Assembly (NCBI GenBank): GCA_964645535.1 | Contig: CAZYCQ010000019.1 | Location: 9,056 to 33,055 of the forward strand | Reading direction: 5' to 3' | Length of the DNA stretch: 24,000 nucleotides | DNA from: an uncultured archaeon | GTDB lineage: Archaea > Asgardarchaeota > Heimdallarchaeia > Heimdallarchaeales > Kariarchaeaceae | Shown here: one piece after another, positions 4,595 through 14,500 of the stretch | Layout: each line of letters starts with the position of its first letter | Position numbering within the stretch: the stretch's first letter is position 1 | Position numbers and translations under genes: made by a program | Notes under the pieces: model-generated | The model's database searches: none | What the model saw: only the letters and a program-made list of their open reading frames with translations | Told to the model about the DNA's origin: nothing

Positions 4595-5290
4595 CTATTC
4601 CTCCCTTTCCAACTCTTCCTCTTCCAGTTTCTCCGAAACCGGTCCGAAAAGATCTGCTTCAAGCATGTCCGAGCTTTCCTCAATCCCATTCTCCTCACTG
4701 CTGGATGTCATCCCTTCTGAATGGATCGTTGAGGTCATCAGGTTCCTGACCATGTCATATTCTGGTTCGCTCGATTCAAACAATGCAAATCCTTCCAAAC
4801 GATCCGGCGTAAGAAATGAGTTGAAGGAATTGACCACCTTCTCACTGGGAAGCTCCAACGCAAATCCTATGGTTTCACTCAGGACATTCCGACAGGCTGT
4901 GAACAGGGGAACCAATCCCTCATCCTTAGATCCCAGCACCATGATGTTGACCTTCCCGTCCAATGCAAGATCATACACCTCCAGCAGGAAACTCAACTCA
5001 AAAAAAGTCTTGGGAAATACCTTCACCGAAAATCCTGCCCGTTGAATCACGTCAAGCTCCGCTGCCTTCATCTGACGAGGGGAAATTATCAATGCCACCT
5101 TGACCTGACCCATCTCCGAAAATTTCTGACGTAGACTGTCCAAGACATTCAGGTTGACCTGACCCTTCTCTTCCAGAACCCCCAAATCTAGTACAATCCC
5201 GATACGGGGTTTGCGGGTCAACATCCCCAAAAGATCAGTCAGGTATTCTGTCACTGGGTCGGCCTCATATCCCTTTCCTCTCCTGAGCAC
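4595..5290 (-). CDS. Hypothetical protein, NYN/LabA-like (PIN-fold) layout with an acidic C-terminal tail
   Basis: 231-aa ORF with a GTG start; an alternative ATG lies at 5224. The pattern RIGIVLDLG ... VKVALIISP ... AGFSVKVFP ... DLALDGKVNIMVLGSKDEGLVPLF follows the strand/helix order of LabA/NYN domains. The C-terminus is Glu/Asp/Ser-rich (EKLEEEELEREE). The call is by eye only. Confidence 0.5.
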   Translation of the reverse strand: MLRRGKGYEADPVTEYLTDLLGMLTRKPRIGIVLDLGVLEEKGQVNLNVLDSLRQKFSEMGQVKVALIISPRQMKAAELDVIQRAGFSVKVFPKTFFELSFLLEVYDLALDGKVNIMVLGSKDEGLVPLFTACRNVLSETIGFALELPSEKVVNSFNSFLTPDRLEGFALFESSEPEYDMVRNLMTSTIHSEGMTSSSEENGIEESSDMLEADLFGPVSEKLEEEELEREE

Positions 5291-5441: not shown

Positions 5442-5924
5442 GTGAATGAACCCGCTCCACTCCGCAACCCCCCACAAACAGGTCCCATCGGAAGAACCGG
5501 AAGGGCTGTCATGGGCATCCTTTTCCTTGCAATAACTCTCAGGGTGTTCCTTGTGAGCACCAGGGACTTCCTGGCCGATGCCCTCGCCTCTGCTGTCGCT
5601 TTCCTCGGGATTTTCATCGTCTACTACGCCCTGCATAGGCTGATTGAATCCGGACGGGTCACTCTGAACGGCTTTTCCGCCGCAGTTCTGGCAAACGGAA
5701 TTGTGGGATCGACAATGGGACTTGGCTATTTCCTTCAAAATCTTCCTCTCTTCATCGGATCAACCCTTTACATCGGCATCACCCTTCTCATTTCCAGCTA
5801 CAGAAAATATCCCGGATGCGAAGTCATGTCACTCCCCGCCCTCCTGACAAGAAAGCATACCTCCCTGCCATGCCTCGTCTTTTCCCAAATCGACAAATGG
5901 GAAAATGCGCATAGCAACGACTAA
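5442..5924 (+). CDS. Integral membrane protein (about 4 TM segments) with a conserved-looking Cys pair near the C-terminus
   Basis: 160-aa ORF with a GTG start; the likely ATG start is at 5511 (MGILFLAITL...). It has several hydrophobic stretches. The C-terminal segment YPGCEVMSLPALLTRKHTSLPCLVF contains the Cys pair. I recognise no family. Confidence 0.6.
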   Translation: MNEPAPLRNPPQTGPIGRTGRAVMGILFLAITLRVFLVSTRDFLADALASAVAFLGIFIVYYALHRLIESGRVTLNGFSAAVLANGIVGSTMGLGYFLQNLPLFIGSTLYIGITLLISSYRKYPGCEVMSLPALLTRKHTSLPCLVFSQIDKWENAHSND

Positions 5925-6013
5925 ACGAAAATTACTATCATCCATTTCATGAAACAAAAATACTCAAACAAACTGTTCCGTTTTCTCAGTTAGATGGATT
6001 TGTGTTATTCATT

Positions 6014-6526
6014 TCAAATGTCATTAAGATCAAAAAACAATGTTACATATTTTTTTGTTTGATCACATTTTTCAAAACCAAACTTCTCATAATATTTAAT
6101 TAATTTATGATTCGGTTCCCCATTTTTATGTCGTACTTGAACAACAACAATTCGACATCCTATTTTCTCTTTCTCCTCATTTGCCAATTTTATTATGTGA
6201 CCAATTAGCATTTTTGCAACTTTCTTTTGTTTTGCCTCTTCTGAATCATTGACTGCAATTTTACCAAGTAAGACCGCAGGAATTTTGAATTTCTTGGCGA
6301 AAATATCAATTTTGAATGCATTCATGCTTGCAGTTGCAAATCCTAAAACATCTGTGCCATCAACATATTCATATACCACTGAAAAATTTTTTTTCATATT
6401 GTTCCAAGCTTCATTTCTATACCATTGATTAAAATCATCATCACGGCTAAAAATTCCTTTTTTAGGAAATCCCTGCATTTTCCTGATCAAAATTATCCCC
6501 TTCAGTCTGAAATTATCTCCTGCCAA
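6014..6526 (-). CDS. GNAT-family N-acetyltransferase, TacT/AtaT-like (putative toxin)
   Basis: 170-aa ORF from TTG 6526; an alternative ATG at 6478 gives 154 aa. It has the GNAT core pattern VLGFATASMNAF ... IPAVLLGKIAVND ... CRIVVVQV ... LIKYYEKFGFE. It is small and is the last gene of an overlapping operon, as in GNAT toxin modules. Confidence 0.65.
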   Translation of the reverse strand: MAGDNFRLKGIILIRKMQGFPKKGIFSRDDDFNQWYRNEAWNNMKKNFSVVYEYVDGTDVLGFATASMNAFKIDIFAKKFKIPAVLLGKIAVNDSEEAKQKKVAKMLIGHIIKLANEEKEKIGCRIVVVQVRHKNGEPNHKLIKYYEKFGFEKCDQTKKYVTLFFDLNDI

Positions 6527-6927
6527 AATTTTATTCTCCGTTTCTTCATCTCCGGATCTGGATTTTCTAGCTTTCTGAGAAATTCTTCTGCCTTTTTGCC
6601 TTTCACTTCAAGATTGTCATCATCTTCTGACCATGCAAATATCTCCATGTGATCCTCATTTGAAGTATCAGAATGCAAAAAAGCTAATGCAGCTGGCATA
6701 TTGGACTTTGACCGAACCTCACTTGAAGCAACTCTTTTTTCTAAAATTGATTGAATGATGGACGGATAATCTTTGAAATTTTCATTATCTTTACTCTTGC
6801 TCCTTCTGGTGAGGGGAAATTGAAATGAATCAGCGTATAGATTTCCTGTACCTGATGTAGTGTAGACAGTATCCAAATTAATCATTTGAAACTCCTCCCA
6901 ATCTACTTTGAATGATTTGTCTTGCAA
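6502..6927 (-). CDS. Hypothetical protein (candidate antitoxin/partner of the GNAT)
   Basis: 141-aa ORF from TTG 6927. The more likely start is ATG 6885 (MINLDTV..., 127 aa), which is embedded in the last codons of the upstream gene (aATGATTAA). The stop at 6502 overlaps or abuts the GNAT start. I recognise no domain. Confidence 0.55.
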   Translation of the reverse strand: MQDKSFKVDWEEFQMINLDTVYTTSGTGNLYADSFQFPLTRRSKSKDNENFKDYPSIIQSILEKRVASSEVRSKSNMPAALAFLHSDTSNEDHMEIFAWSEDDDNLEVKGKKAEEFLRKLENPDPEMKKRRIKFWQEIISD

Positions 6928-7354
6928 GAACTGATGATTTCATAACTTTGTTCAGCGTTGACATAAAACGACCAAGACCAAATTCATCCGCGTAGACATG
7001 TGAAACGATGCTATATCTATTATCTCCTTTCTCTCCTGTAAAATGGAGAAACAATTTCGGTTCTCGAGGAGTGACCCACATAAAAATTTCAGCCAATAGC
7101 TCTTGCTGTTTAGACTTTGACATTGATAGGTATACCTTCTCATGTTCACTGGATAATTGCACATTGCTGACAATATCTATCCTATGAGGAAAAGACTGGA
7201 TGATCAATATTAGTAAATTCGTAATTGGATCCCTAAATGACAAGGCAAATTGAATTTCATCTGTAATGTCTTTTTCTTCTTGCCATACATACCCCTCCAA
7301 ATCCAAAAATGCCTTGACCTGATTCTTTGCATCCTTTATATTCATTCCCTTCAA
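6878..7354 (-). CDS. Hypothetical protein, possibly YbjN/DUF2299-like (tentative)
   Basis: 158-aa ORF from TTG 7354; an ATG lies at 7345. A minus-strand TATA-like element (plus-strand 7371-7384, aaaatattttaatt) is centred about 27-32 nt upstream. The alternating alpha/beta pattern and the length resemble small archaeal chaperone-like proteins. That resemblance is by eye only. Confidence 0.55.
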   Translation of the reverse strand: MKGMNIKDAKNQVKAFLDLEGYVWQEEKDITDEIQFALSFRDPITNLLILIIQSFPHRIDIVSNVQLSSEHEKVYLSMSKSKQQELLAEIFMWVTPREPKLFLHFTGEKGDNRYSIVSHVYADEFGLGRFMSTLNKVMKSSVLARQIIQSRLGGVSND

Positions 7355-7619
7355 AAACTCTTAACACCAGAAAATATTTTAATTGTACTATTTCAACGTA
7401 ATTAAAAAGTACTATATGAAAAATTGGGTAATTTCAACAATGGACAAAAAAGATACCGACAACCAAGCATTCCTTACAATTTTGAACCTTTGAGTCTGAT
7501 ATCCATCTGCTGGTTCAAACCAAAACCCATGAAAAAAATTCGAGGAAATTATGCCTTTTAAATGGAAAATAGTTGTGTTTCACCTATGCCAAGTTCAAAA
7601 ACCACAATAATTAAGATAC

Positions 7620-7813
7620 AAGGACAGGTCGTCCGAAACTCGATTGGAACCCTTAAGGAAAGTGGACTCGTGAAAGGATCGAGCTGATCTGCTCCTGATC
7701 AAAGGCATCTTCTGACAGGATTTGTCCCCCTCATTCGGAAGGCAGGAGCGGTCTCAACGGGATGCGCCAAACTCGACGCCCTTCGCGTGGTGTTCAAGAA
7801 CAATGCATACTGA
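7620..7813 (+). other. GC-rich patch: gene relic (ORF with one in-frame TGA) or structured ncRNA, unresolved
   Basis: The GC content is locally much higher than the AT-rich surroundings. Long ORFs run on both strands (7722.. plus, 7699..7947 minus). Plus frame 2 is open from ATG 7562 to TGA 7811 except for a single TGA at 7685-7687, and that frame is G-rich at first codon positions. Confidence 0.25.
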
Positions 7814-8462
7814 CAAAGCAGTTGCCAAAACAAAGGAAATTTCTCAAACCTTAAGCAATTCTGTTGAACCCTCGGACATGCCGTTCTCTCTAAATGGAAC
7901 GACAAGACGGAAATGCCTGCTTTATATGGTCTCTTCCTTCGAAACACAAGATATCGACATTACTGGTAAAATTCAGTTGAATAAACTGACAAGGAATAGT
8001 TTATTGAAATCTGGATTGTATACTGAAGAATCTCTTAAGGGACTCAAATCAATCTCTGTTGAACAGATCATACATCGAAGGATGAGTGTCCTGTACCAAT
8101 CAACAAACGGCTTAACCTTAGATCAGTTCGTCAATGATGCAAAATTTCAGATATTCTTCGGCACAAAGGATCGGGAAAGGATGAGTAAATTCTTTGAAAT
8201 AATTGGTCGTACCAAACCTGATCAGATTGCCAAAATTGGGGATCTCTCTACCCTTATCAATATGAAACCAAACGAGGTCATGGCCTTCAAGCCCGCATCC
8301 TTTTCCACAAAGGAAGCTGAACTGCTGCAAGGATTCTTTGCACAATTCTTTGAAAGGGAAATCGGTCCGATGCTCTACCTTAAAGGATCCCATACATTAC
8401 CTCTTTACCGCTTTAATTTCCCAAAATACTGGATTCACATCAGAAACCGATCCCATACTTGA
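7722..8462 (+). CDS. Hypothetical protein (ORFan), first gene of a two-gene cassette
   Basis: 246-aa ORF from TTG 7722. Its 5' part overlaps the GC-rich patch, so the true start is probably an internal ATG (7803, 7878 or 7926). The stop overlaps the next ORF's TTG (cTTGA). I recognise no domain. Confidence 0.55.
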   Translation: MSPSFGRQERSQRDAPNSTPFAWCSRTMHTDKAVAKTKEISQTLSNSVEPSDMPFSLNGTTRRKCLLYMVSSFETQDIDITGKIQLNKLTRNSLLKSGLYTEESLKGLKSISVEQIIHRRMSVLYQSTNGLTLDQFVNDAKFQIFFGTKDRERMSKFFEIIGRTKPDQIAKIGDLSTLINMKPNEVMAFKPASFSTKEAELLQGFFAQFFEREIGPMLYLKGSHTLPLYRFNFPKYWIHIRNRSHT

Positions 8463-9925
8463 TTCATTCCAATTCACCTTTACCCAGCAGAATGAACAAC
8501 CTACTGAAGAGATATTCCGAAAAATTCGGTAGCACCCTTTCAACTCCAATTGAAAAAATAATTCAGACCGCCTATGGTACCGCATTGGCACAAATAATCC
8601 ATAACTGCATGAAAATCGATCCTCTTTCTTATGGAAGCGATGTGATGGTTGTTATCTTGAAAAAGCCATTCCGAACTGGTTCAACCGAGAAAATTATCAA
8701 TGGCATTTTCCTTGATATTCAACGTCCATATAGTGAAACAGGTATTTATAAGGCCAACATGTTTGATTTTTCAACAAAATGGGTCTCGAACGACATAGGG
8801 AATTCAAATGCACAAACAAACTGGCTGAAAGCGCTTGAAAATTTGGACGAAATGTTTCAGGATAATATAGGGAAACTGGCAAAAACGTACAATGAAATGG
8901 TCTATTTCTCTGACAAGAAAGCCAGAATTGGTGCATTCATAAATCCGATCTGGGATATGCTGGACGAGCCATCCAAAACTGAGGTAATGAGAATTGCGAA
9001 GGAACATGCCGATGAAGTCTCAAATCAGTTGAAAAACGGATGCCTTCCAAATCCGGACAGTTGGCCATGCAACATCGCATATACTGGTTATCATCTCTCT
9101 GTCGGAAATTGGGACAAGAAAATAAGATCTGGAAACGAGCTCCCATCCAATTTCAGATTTGAGGTCAAGGAAGAAAATGTCATGCTTTGGTACCTTGATT
9201 ATATCATGCATAATCCAAACAGGCAAGTGGATCTCAATATAGTGAACAGTCCAGAAAATGTCCAATTGGTCAAAATCTTGACGTTGAACCCCAACAGGGA
9301 TAGAACCTTCAAGCTGAGCGAAGTGATTGTCTATCACAGGCAGGACAAATATACGCAAGCAATTAAACAACTGATCTACGAAAACCAGGAAGGCATTGCA
9401 CGATTCTTGGGCATCTTGGAACAAAAGGCAAGAACTGTGAATGCGGATGCAGTCAAAATATTTGAAAGGGCATTCAGCAATTTAAAGTATTATTCAAAAC
9501 CTACTTTTTTCCCTTTTAGTGACGCAGAAGGACTGTTGCCAAAACACATGGCATCCCATGTAATCCCACCAAATGCTGTCAAAACACCTTCTGGAAATTA
9601 TGTCTTCTTTGAAGGAATAAGTGAAAACCATGCATACATCCCTTCAATCATCGACCAAGAGGAATATGACAGAATTCTTCAAATCTTGCAGATTGAGGAT
9701 GCCGCCGAAATATACAAGAACCTCAAAAGACAGCTTACAAACACCTATAATGATATTGATTCTTTCGTACAAAAAATGACACAACATACAAAGCAGAACT
9801 TTATTGACTTCATCGATGATCAGGTGGATAAGTTCATTGAAGAGTTCAACAATGTCAAAGGAGGCATTTCAACCATGCTCAAAAACATGAGAAGGTTGAT
9901 CACAAATATTATGGAAAAGTTGTAA
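8459..9925 (+). CDS. Hypothetical protein (ORFan), helical/coiled-coil-like C-terminus
   Basis: 488-aa ORF from TTG 8459; an alternative ATG lies at 8492 (MNNLLKRYSEKFG...). There is no Walker, HEPN, RT or recombinase motif that I can see. The C-terminal roughly 90 aa are heptad-like (EEYDRILQILQIEDAAEIYKNLKRQL...). Confidence 0.7.
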   Translation: MIHSNSPLPSRMNNLLKRYSEKFGSTLSTPIEKIIQTAYGTALAQIIHNCMKIDPLSYGSDVMVVILKKPFRTGSTEKIINGIFLDIQRPYSETGIYKANMFDFSTKWVSNDIGNSNAQTNWLKALENLDEMFQDNIGKLAKTYNEMVYFSDKKARIGAFINPIWDMLDEPSKTEVMRIAKEHADEVSNQLKNGCLPNPDSWPCNIAYTGYHLSVGNWDKKIRSGNELPSNFRFEVKEENVMLWYLDYIMHNPNRQVDLNIVNSPENVQLVKILTLNPNRDRTFKLSEVIVYHRQDKYTQAIKQLIYENQEGIARFLGILEQKARTVNADAVKIFERAFSNLKYYSKPTFFPFSDAEGLLPKHMASHVIPPNAVKTPSGNYVFFEGISENHAYIPSIIDQEEYDRILQILQIEDAAEIYKNLKRQLTNTYNDIDSFVQKMTQHTKQNFIDFIDDQVDKFIEEFNNVKGGISTMLKNMRRLITNIMEKL

Positions 9926-10029: not shown

Positions 10030-10103
10030 TGATCCGGGAGGGATTCGAACCCACGATCACGTGCACCCCAAGCACGCATGTTACCAAGCTACACTACCGG
10101 ATC
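10030..10103 (-). tRNA. tRNA-Pro (anticodon GGG)
   Basis: The reverse complement folds as a cloverleaf. The acceptor stem GATCCGG/CCGGATC is a perfect 7 bp. The D-arm is GTGT-AGCTTGGTA-ACAT. The anticodon arm is CGTGC-TTGGGGT-GCACG, giving anticodon GGG with G37. The T-arm is GTGGG-TTCGAAT-CCCTC with one U-U mismatch. The discriminator is A, no CCA is encoded, and T6 follows on the minus strand (10024-10029). Confidence 0.9.
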
Positions 10104-14113: not shown

Positions 14114-14500
14114 ATGTTCGACTTCTCATTCGATGACAAAGCAAAAGATTTGGACGAAATCCTTCGAGAGATAGATGTAAACGTCAAGGAAATTGAGGCC
14201 GCAGCAATTGTGTCCATAGAAGGGCTTCCAATTGCCGCTCGTATGCCTCCTGAATACGAAGATGCAATCGTTGCCGCCATGACGGCAGCCATGCTGTCCT
14301 TGGGTGAAAAGATCAGCAACAATCTTAACCGAGGCGTGTTGCAGAAGATTTTTGTTGAGGGGAAGGATGGTCACGTCATTTCAGTTGCTGCTGGATCAAA
14401 TGCCGTGTTGACAGTATCGACCAATAAAGACGCAAAGCTTGGTCTGATCTTTCATGAAATGGAAATTGCAGCTAAAAAGATCGCGGAAATCCTTGGATGA
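14114..14500 (+). CDS. Roadblock/LC7 (MglB-like) domain protein
   Basis: 128-aa ORF. It has the pattern IEAAAIVSIEGLPIAARMP ... AAMTAAMLSLGEKI ... ILVEG-like core (IFVEGKDGHVISVAAG), typical of Roadblock/LC7. It is divergent from the GPN GTPase gene. Confidence 0.8.
   Translation: MFDFSFDDKAKDLDEILREIDVNVKEIEAAAIVSIEGLPIAARMPPEYEDAIVAAMTAAMLSLGEKISNNLNRGVLQKIFVEGKDGHVISVAAGSNAVLTVSTNKDAKLGLIFHEMEIAAKKIAEILG

Follow-up and report, generated by a model that had tools for sequence, protein, structure and literature searches.

A three-gene GNAT operon from an uncultured Asgard archaeon: a candidate toxin–antitoxin-like module with an optional chaperone-like component

We analysed a 24,000-nt stretch of DNA (the window; GenBank assembly GCA_964645535.1, contig CAZYCQ010000019.1, positions 9,056–33,055) from an uncultured archaeon of the Kariarchaeaceae, focusing on a compact operon that encodes a small GNAT acetyltransferase and two further proteins. 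Coordinates are positions within the window, and all three genes of the module lie on the minus strand. Gene 1 (ORF1, A; 6878..7354) begins at TTG 7354 (158 aa) or ATG 7345 (155 aa) and encodes a DUF2299 protein. Gene 2 (ORF2, B; 6502..6885) runs from ATG 6885 to a stop codon at 6502–6504 and encodes the putative partner of the GNAT. Its product divides into an N-terminal variable region (residues 1–86; 6628..6885), which is rich in Ser, Thr, Asp and Glu and carries no recognizable domain, and a conserved C-terminal module (residues 87–127; 6505..6627; EDDDNLEVKGKKAEEFLRKLENPDPEMKKRRIKFWQEIISD), predicted to form a strand, a helix, a PDP linker and a second helix. Gene 3 (ORF3, C; 6014..6478) encodes the GNAT and starts at ATG 6478, with TTG 6526 as the alternative.

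An initial annotation of this DNA had described three head-to-tail minus-strand open reading frames (ORFs), and all of its coordinates were verified. It had also placed the ATG of gene 2 inside the last codons of gene 1 (aATGATTAA); the resulting 8-nt overlap is present, and a GGAGG lies 8 nt upstream of that ATG. Such translational coupling fits a stoichiometric complex of the two products. For the GNAT, two starts had been left open: TTG 6526, which overlaps gene 2 by 25 nt, and ATG 6478, which leaves a 23-nt gap after the gene 2 stop codon. The NCBI gene model adopts the former (170 aa, overlapping gene 2; window 6479–6526). Because four aligned homologues all begin at a methionine matching ATG 6478, we take the GNAT to be 154 aa long and to start 23 nt past the gene 2 stop codon; the TTG start found no such support. 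Upstream of the operon, the TATA-like element of the initial annotation (AATTAAAATATTTT; 7371..7384, minus strand) is present ~20 nt before the first start codon, and it has a counterpart in three related loci (L004, L006 and L008), where a TTAAAATAG box lies ~19–20 nt before the first start codon. Read from the sequence, this box would suit an archaeal TATA element from which an operon mRNA with a short leader or none is transcribed. At the other end, a T-rich tract (TGTTTGAGTATTTTTGTTT; 5952..5970, minus strand), ~45–60 nt past the GNAT stop codon, is a possible if weak candidate for an archaeal oligo-T terminator, likewise read from the sequence alone. Scanning the module with bacterial-type promoter and terminator models gave nothing better than shuffled sequences and no terminator.

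Queried singly, the GNAT sequence matches generic GNAT models only. The protein matches Pfam Acetyltransf_1 at 26.6 bits (E 7.6e-6; cut-off 20.7) and the acetyltransferase family phrog_1758 (E 6e-15), and at 154 aa it falls in about the size range of TacT/AtaT/KacT-type toxins (about 150–180 aa). An exhaustive HMMER search of 1.84e9 cluster representatives with a three-sequence GNAT profile (E ≤ 1e-3) yielded just 90 relatives, 11 of them at E ≤ 1e-10. We then ran a profile of the window GNAT and its twelve closest matches (alignment A6; 25–69% identity) against all PDB sequences. The top 15 matches, at E 1.4e-13 to 4.9e-7, were without exception TacT, AtaT or KacT chains, followed among GNATs by Naa50 at E 5.8e-3, with RimI at 0.39. 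Database output names two of these top chains, 5zgn as KacT and 7f36 as TacT. Among the others, we take 5xun to be KacT, 7f37, 5fvj, 7ak7, 7ak8 and 6g96 to be TacT-type, and 6ajm, 6ajn, 6gtp–6gts and 7chd to be AtaT; 9ilr is also in the top 15. In the reciprocal direction, a hidden Markov model (HMM) was built from seven plasmid GNATs, six of which have a gene annotated as 'DUF1778 domain-containing protein' directly upstream. It scored the window GNAT at 41.7 bits and nearly all of the more distant relatives (all but the closest ~11 of the 90) at 45–180 bits, marking these as TacT-type. The rimI equivalog TIGR01575 gave 25.8 bits against a cut-off of 86.4, and PRK09491 gave 12.6 against 173.

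The alignment of the GNAT with the seven plasmid toxins is collinear over the full length. Tyr130 (codon 6089..6091, minus strand) aligns with position 140 of a TacT-like protein (L022), the position of the catalytic tyrosine of TacT-type toxins, and is invariant across the archaeal family; in KacT the catalytic residue is Y145, and Y145F is an inactive variant (PMC6698736). Two features set the archaeal sequences apart. Ahead of the catalytic helix they carry an insertion of 6–14 aa, and the loop expected to bind the pyrophosphate of acetyl-coenzyme A (AcCoA) reads F/YxGKGLG in the bacterial toxins, YxGKxYG in other members of the archaeal family and EEAKQKKVAK in the clade formed by the window and its close relatives (window residues SEEAKQKKVAK; 6212..6244, minus strand). 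The motifs that had led the initial annotation to liken the protein to small GNAT toxins are present, and its expectation that the protein would group with these rather than with RimI or Pat is borne out by the PDB matches and by a rimI score far under cut-off. The GNAT almost certainly belongs to the TacT/AtaT/KacT toxin superfamily, in which its sequence places it as a divergent branch with an atypical cofactor loop, not as a housekeeping acetyltransferase.

Gene 2 has no counterpart in any family of Pfam, NCBIfam, PHROGs or PADLOC. Within the window clade its product is only 36–41% identical, against ~70% for those of genes 1 and 3 at the same loci; most of this divergence is N-terminal, and the last ~40 residues are spared. 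Disorder-promoting residues make up 60% of the N-terminal region, and residues 1–86 are a candidate binding segment for the gene 1 product. The C-terminus behaves differently: the motif [DE][FY]x[IV]xGxEAxxFxxxLENPDPxRxxxRxK occurs in 10/10 partners of this GNAT family. For seven more distant GNAT relatives whose contigs were inspected, the gene directly upstream always ends in the same module after wholly different N-termini, so that every family member examined has such a partner gene directly upstream, whatever its N-terminus. Because all partners share the module despite these differences, it is inherited along with the GNAT and is the likely contact element. We propose residues 87–127 as the GNAT-binding, neutralizing element, and the gene 2 product is quite likely the cognate binding partner or antitoxin of the GNAT.

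How this tail relates to known antitoxins is a matter of weak resemblance. TacT-like toxins are paired with DUF1778 antitoxins, which carry an N-terminal ribbon-helix-helix (RHH) domain, and the C-terminus of one of these, KacA (betaB-alphaC-71PPAP74-alphaD), wraps KacT and covers its AcCoA site (PMC6698736). The predicted order of elements in the partner module, a strand, a helix, a Pro-rich linker and a helix, matches this pattern. Aligned by hhalign with the C-terminal half of six DUF1778 proteins, the ten-sequence partner module gave 26 collinear columns with P 0.0088, at an HH probability of 4.6%, from small alignments and for a region picked post hoc. The observed score was 14.7 against 7.6 ± 1.6 (maximum 13.6) for 200 column-shuffled controls, none of which reached it (0/200); against full-length DUF1778 the module gave P 0.05. 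We regard this as a suggestive lead, not proof, that the partner tail weakly resembles the toxin-wrapping half of DUF1778. The module is unlikely to be an RHH domain itself, given its acidic to neutral charge and a strand without basic or polar residues for reading DNA. Matches of gene 2 to a protelomerase (E 0.0017), YscU and AvrBs1 were short and were set aside as chance. The statement in the initial annotation that the upstream partner shows no RHH domain holds for Pfam, NCBIfam and PDB profiles, which gave no RHH or DUF1778 match; its description of a novel antitoxin is tempered by the conserved tail, which weakly resembles the toxin-binding half of DUF1778 and makes the protein less novel. 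The window clade has a shortened and changed last helix in the partner module (6505–6560; KFWQEI against KTLxxAxxxYxK), and it is also the clade with the altered GNAT loop. Judged from the alignments, these paired changes would be compatible with co-adaptation of an interface, or with loss of activity.

Gene 1 had been likened to YbjN/DUF2299 chaperone-like proteins from its alpha/beta pattern, and both the family and the fold bear this out. Its product scores 39 bits (E 8.5e-10) with Pfam PF10061 (DUF2299), where the cut-off is 22.8, and the match spans 131 of the 138 profile positions. A profile of the gene 1 family finds PDB entry 3cxj, the sole solved DUF2299 structure, at E 1.2e-4, and an AlphaFold2 model of moderate confidence (predicted local distance difference test, pLDDT, 60) matches 3cxj by Foldseek with a template-modelling (TM) score of 0.70 and E 1.4e-8. 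The next Foldseek matches are ExsC, YbjN, AmyR, VecA, ShcF, SycH, CesT, SrcA and SicP. Sequence and model together predict for the gene 1 product an alpha-beta-beta-beta-alpha-beta-beta-alpha fold, as in YbjN and the class I chaperones of type III secretion systems (T3SS). Proteins of this kind are described as dimers that bind extended polypeptide segments (PMC9503650, PMC5398634). A full-text literature search returned no paper mentioning DUF2299 and no published function for it.

Conservation of the three-gene arrangement was the next line of evidence. In the close relatives of the window the trio recurs complete with the 8-nt overlap between its first two genes, at about 70% identity (70–73% for gene 1). 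A DUF2299–partner–GNAT order recurs in two distant lineages, a Candidatus Hodarchaeota metagenome-assembled genome (MAG; L012), which holds the nearest distant triad, and L015, whose GNATs are 34% and 35% identical to that of the window; the first-gene homologues of both also match DUF2299, and L015 shares the overlap. Co-conservation of the triad, on which the initial annotation had staked its proposal, is thereby found. More broadly, wherever a gene 1 exists it overlaps gene 2 by 1–23 nt, and because the same order and overlap recur in relatives and in distant lineages, the arrangement goes beyond chance. The identity of gene 1 varies across the family: DUF2299 in three lineages (the window clade, itself comprising three ~70% identical lineages, L012 and L015), an unrelated protein of 128–135 aa in two (L014, 3544–3951; L017, 1169–1555) and no first gene in two (L010 and L018). 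Since gene 1 is replaced or absent in some loci, the core of the module is the partner–GNAT pair, with DUF2299 as a recurrent but optional addition. The first genes of L014 and L017 were considered as DUF2299 relatives and rejected, as no relation was detected; the two resemble each other.

The N-termini of the partners vary along with the first gene. Where DUF2299 is present, the partner N-terminus is long (80–155 aa), fast-evolving, free of recognizable domains and acidic or neutral; in L014 and L017 it is strongly basic (+10 to +12). Partners encoded without a gene 1 have compact, folded-looking N-terminal domains: the 86-aa partner of L010 looks RHH-like, by eye only, and the 137-aa partner of L018 has a helical, weakly MJ0235-like N-terminus. 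An hhalign alignment of the L010 partner onto RHH helix 2 of DUF1778 (P 0.03) conflicts with the C-terminal alignment, and neither is significant alone. Word-indexed protein searches with the GNAT and gene 1 recovered only the ~70% identical relatives and, with gene 2, nothing past its own sequence. In two scans of 185,579 species-representative genomes the patterns used picked up no relatives, nor did two scans of viral contigs, and a metagenome scan added four more distant GNATs. In three metagenomic GNATs of 22–27% identity (L027, 709–1290; L028, 2932–3477; L030, 1090–1587) the loop is a canonical GxGxG, and the GCRL[IV]IV and FDL motifs are kept. Inspection of these three loci showed no partner ORF of 60 aa or more upstream; the GNATs might stand alone or have very small partners.

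Set beside known systems, the module combines familiar and unfamiliar parts. It shares with TacAT, AtaRT and KacAT a homologous GNAT (profile E to 1e-13, collinear over the full length, catalytic tyrosine kept), a small partner gene immediately upstream in the same operon and a partner tail whose predicted strand-helix-Pro-linker-helix order weakly resembles the toxin-wrapping region of KacA, TacA and AtaR. Unlike those systems, its partner has neither an RHH domain nor a Pfam DUF1778 match, the partner and toxin genes are separated by 23 nt and do not overlap, a third gene lies upstream, the host is an archaeon, the AcCoA loop has no glycine in the window clade and reads YxGKxYG elsewhere in the family, and a 6–14-aa insertion precedes the catalytic helix. 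Partner exchange has a precedent: in DUF4065 (Panacea/SocA-like)–GNAT pairs the DUF1778 antitoxin of a GNAT toxin has been swapped, and GNATs outside the 'true TA clade' have divergent short upstream ORFs without DNA-binding domains (Bikmetov et al. 2022, PMC9177977). The partner described here is neither DUF4065 nor an isolated short ORF of that kind; it belongs to a recognizable family with a conserved C-terminal module, accompanied by a third gene in several lineages. Toxin–antitoxin–chaperone (TAC) systems with SecB-like chaperones, such as HigBA-SecB of Mycobacterium tuberculosis (PMC5105189, PMC6377645), offer the closest parallel to the three-gene form. They too consist of three genes, with an antitoxin that has an aggregation-prone or disordered extension and a dedicated peptide-binding chaperone (a role that gene 1 would have by analogy), and there too the chaperone is an optional add-on to a toxin–antitoxin pair. 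The differences are that the fold here is T3SS class I/YbjN (DUF2299) and not SecB; that the variable extension is N-terminal, with the conserved module at the extreme C-terminus, whereas the chaperone addiction (ChAD) region of TAC antitoxins is C-terminal; and that the chaperone-like gene comes first, the toxin is a GNAT and not HigB, MqsR or HicA, and the host is an archaeon. With class I T3SS chaperones, YbjN/AmyR and 3cxj (from Methanothermobacter thermautotrophicus) gene 1 shares the fold and Pfam DUF2299, but unlike the T3SS chaperones it has no secretion system in its context. The module fails the defining features both of DUF1778 antitoxins (RHH, Pfam match) and of TAC systems (SecB, C-terminal ChAD). 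None of the literature that we searched describes a GNAT toxin module that includes a protein of T3SS-chaperone/YbjN fold, and none reports such modules from Asgard-type archaea.

TacT/AtaT/KacT-type toxins acetylate the amino group of charged tRNA. On the strength of family membership, the gene 3 product would be an effector of this kind and would stop translation. The gene 2 product would be its cognate neutralizer, having lost or never had the N-terminal RHH domain of DUF1778 antitoxins; its C-terminal strand-helix-Pro-linker-helix may wrap around the GNAT, hiding its AcCoA/tRNA site, in the manner of KacA, AtaR and TacA. A dimer of the gene 1 product could hold the long, fast-evolving, low-complexity N-terminus of the gene 2 product and so stabilize the antitoxin or regulate its availability, in parallel with SecB in TAC systems. 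Toxicity of the GNAT, neutralization by gene 2 and chaperoning by gene 1 are thus drawn by analogy. With moderate confidence, we favour the interpretation that the module is a chromosomal, non-canonical GNAT toxin–antitoxin-like operon with an optional chaperone-like third component, probably acquired horizontally. Its parts differ in strength. That the DUF2299 protein acts as a chaperone or adaptor for the gene 2 product is a tentative proposal by analogy. It is more doubtful that DUF2299 takes over the TAC role of SecB, which would define a new TAC class in Asgard-type and related archaea in which DUF2299 holds the disordered N-terminus of an RHH-less antitoxin of a tRNA-acetylating GNAT. 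The initial annotation had cautiously proposed a toxin–antitoxin module with a possible chaperone; every prediction of it that can be computed held, and none of the findings it had named as fatal was encountered.

Several observations weigh against the favoured interpretation. In the window clade, all glycines of the F/YxGKGxG loop are replaced and two residues are inserted, and by comparison with the bacterial toxins the activity of these GNATs may be weakened or altered. The AlphaFold2 models of the gene 1 and GNAT products both reach a pLDDT of only about 60. The GNAT model, built from a three-sequence alignment, retrieved generic GNATs at a TM score of about 0.5 with TacT at rank 43, a placement that is uninformative and that we left unused. 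Foldseek, which the initial annotation had envisaged for AlphaFold models, found the gene 1 fold but could not tell toxin GNATs from others. HMMER searches of Pfam and PDB with full-length gene 2, its C-terminal 47 aa, distant partners and a ten-sequence profile gave no DUF1778 or antitoxin match (E ≤ 10 for DUF1778), and the similarity seen by hhalign is weak, given its low probability, the small alignments and a region chosen after the resemblance was seen. No autoregulatory DNA-binding domain was identified anywhere in the window module. PADLOC returned no significant match in the module, with none for genes 1 and 3 and one marginal match for gene 2 (PDC-M38B, E 0.007). Gene 1 is not universal in the family and hence not essential to the core pair. 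Finally, the N-termini of the DUF2299-linked partners share no motif that we could find. As the segments of T3SS effectors that bind chaperones are likewise not known to be conserved in sequence, this last point argues weakly in either direction.

The variability of gene 1 leads to an alternative in which genes 2 and 3 form an ordinary two-gene GNAT toxin–antitoxin pair, and gene 1 encodes a regulator or sensor (by ExsC-like partner switching or by sensing the trigger of an abortive infection) or a direct neutralizer. Such a role would accommodate a gene that is replaceable or missing within the family, and proteins of the T3SS-chaperone fold also serve as regulators, with ExsC and YbjN/AmyR among the top fold matches. 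A module without a DNA-binding domain would also need some other regulatory input. T3SS-chaperone homologues have been predicted as antitoxins (PMC13092808), and phage-defence activity is possible for TAC systems (bioRxiv 10.1101/2024.02.24.581848). We nonetheless consider this alternative unlikely: the start/stop overlap of genes 1 and 2 is kept across lineages, which fits a stoichiometric complex better than a catalytic or sensing role; the partners are long and of low complexity exactly where gene 1 exists; and there is neither a PADLOC match nor a virus-borne copy in the viral-contig scans.

Other alternatives concern the GNAT itself. It might descend from the toxin lineage and yet be non-toxic, acetylating a protein N-terminus, a lysine or a small molecule as its physiological substrate, with the products of genes 1 and 2 as regulatory or specificity subunits. 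Relatives that are exclusively of toxin type, together with a rimI score far under cut-off, make this distinctly unlikely, as do the sparse, patchy spread of the family (11 close cluster representatives in 1.84e9, and none found by the patterns used on the 185,579 species-representative genomes), the location of an AT-rich module in a variable region, and an obligatory small upstream partner with an antitoxin-like tail, which is typical of toxin–antitoxin pairs. In its favour, the analysis of PMC9177977 allows non-toxic enzymes among toxin-related GNATs without DUF1778 partners, the archaeal family has both a modified AcCoA loop and the 6–14-aa insertion, and the three genes, of which 1 and 3 are about 70% identical, are well conserved at a syntenic chromosomal position across related MAGs. 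The altered loop could also mean that the window clade retains a decaying or domesticated remnant, whose GNAT no longer binds AcCoA and whose operon persists without toxin activity. The loss of all three loop glycines with two inserted residues, and the shortened and altered last helix of the gene 2 product in the same clade, count in favour of this. We judge it very improbable, as all of the ORFs have stayed intact across three lineages that differ by about 30%, the GNAT is 69–72% identical with its catalytic tyrosine and GCR and FFDL motifs kept, and the matching changes in GNAT loop and partner helix look like co-adaptation, not decay.

To our knowledge, GNAT toxins that acetylate charged tRNA have been characterized in bacteria only, almost always with DUF1778 antitoxins. 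If the operon is indeed a toxin–antitoxin-like module with a chaperone-like component, the TacT/AtaT/KacT superfamily would extend to archaea, the Hodarchaeota MAG included, and an antitoxin reduced to its toxin-binding tail would point to a modular build of such proteins. DUF2299, represented by structure 3cxj, would gain a first function as a dedicated chaperone or adaptor, and chaperone addiction of antitoxins would have been invented a second time, independently and with another chaperone fold. The glycine-free AcCoA loop and the altered partner helix would then offer a natural case for the evolution of a toxin–antitoxin interface.

The surroundings of the module are chromosomal. Its flanks are housekeeping genes (for pyruvate phosphate dikinase, an amidohydrolase, undecaprenyl-diphosphate synthase and glutamate synthase), and its GC content of 34% compares with 47% in the upstream and 44% in the downstream flank (chromosome 43–47%), in line with the AT-rich accessory island described by the initial annotation. 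In the relative L004, the same core genes flank a variable region with different content, and 400 bp separate the triad from a tRNA-Pro(GGG) gene upstream of it. The corresponding gap in the window, where tRNA-Pro(GGG) is at 10030–10103 (minus strand), holds two overlapping ORFs on the plus strand (7722–9925; 246 and 488 aa); neither has a Pfam family, and together they look like a local insertion beside the tRNA gene. Because the triad is kept in L004 and in the window despite differing neighbours, it is a stable unit within the variable AT-rich patch. No att-like direct repeats were found flanking this patch.

Some further genes were noted nearby. The 488-aa protein has only a weak PHROG match, of coiled-coil or tape-measure type. 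On the other side of the module, the window encodes a 231-aa protein with a marginal match to the NYN (RNase-like) domain and an acidic C-terminal tail (4595–5290, minus strand) and, between the amidohydrolase gene and the module, a hydrophobic 160-aa ORF of 53% GC (5442–5924, plus strand). The corresponding stretch of L004 is occupied by other genes, including ones for a chromate transporter and a TPR protein. Also near the module (window 14114–14500, plus strand; L003, 11834–13156) are genes for Roadblock/LC7 proteins and for a small GTPase of Arf/Ras type, along with a faint match to L38e. Around the distant copies, the Hodarchaeota contig (L012, 4087–4988) carries a Phage_int_SAM_1 fragment and an adjacent ORF 1.6 kb downstream of the module, and L017 (2626–4364) carries DUF4145 and FRG-domain genes directly downstream; these neighbours look mobile or defence-like.

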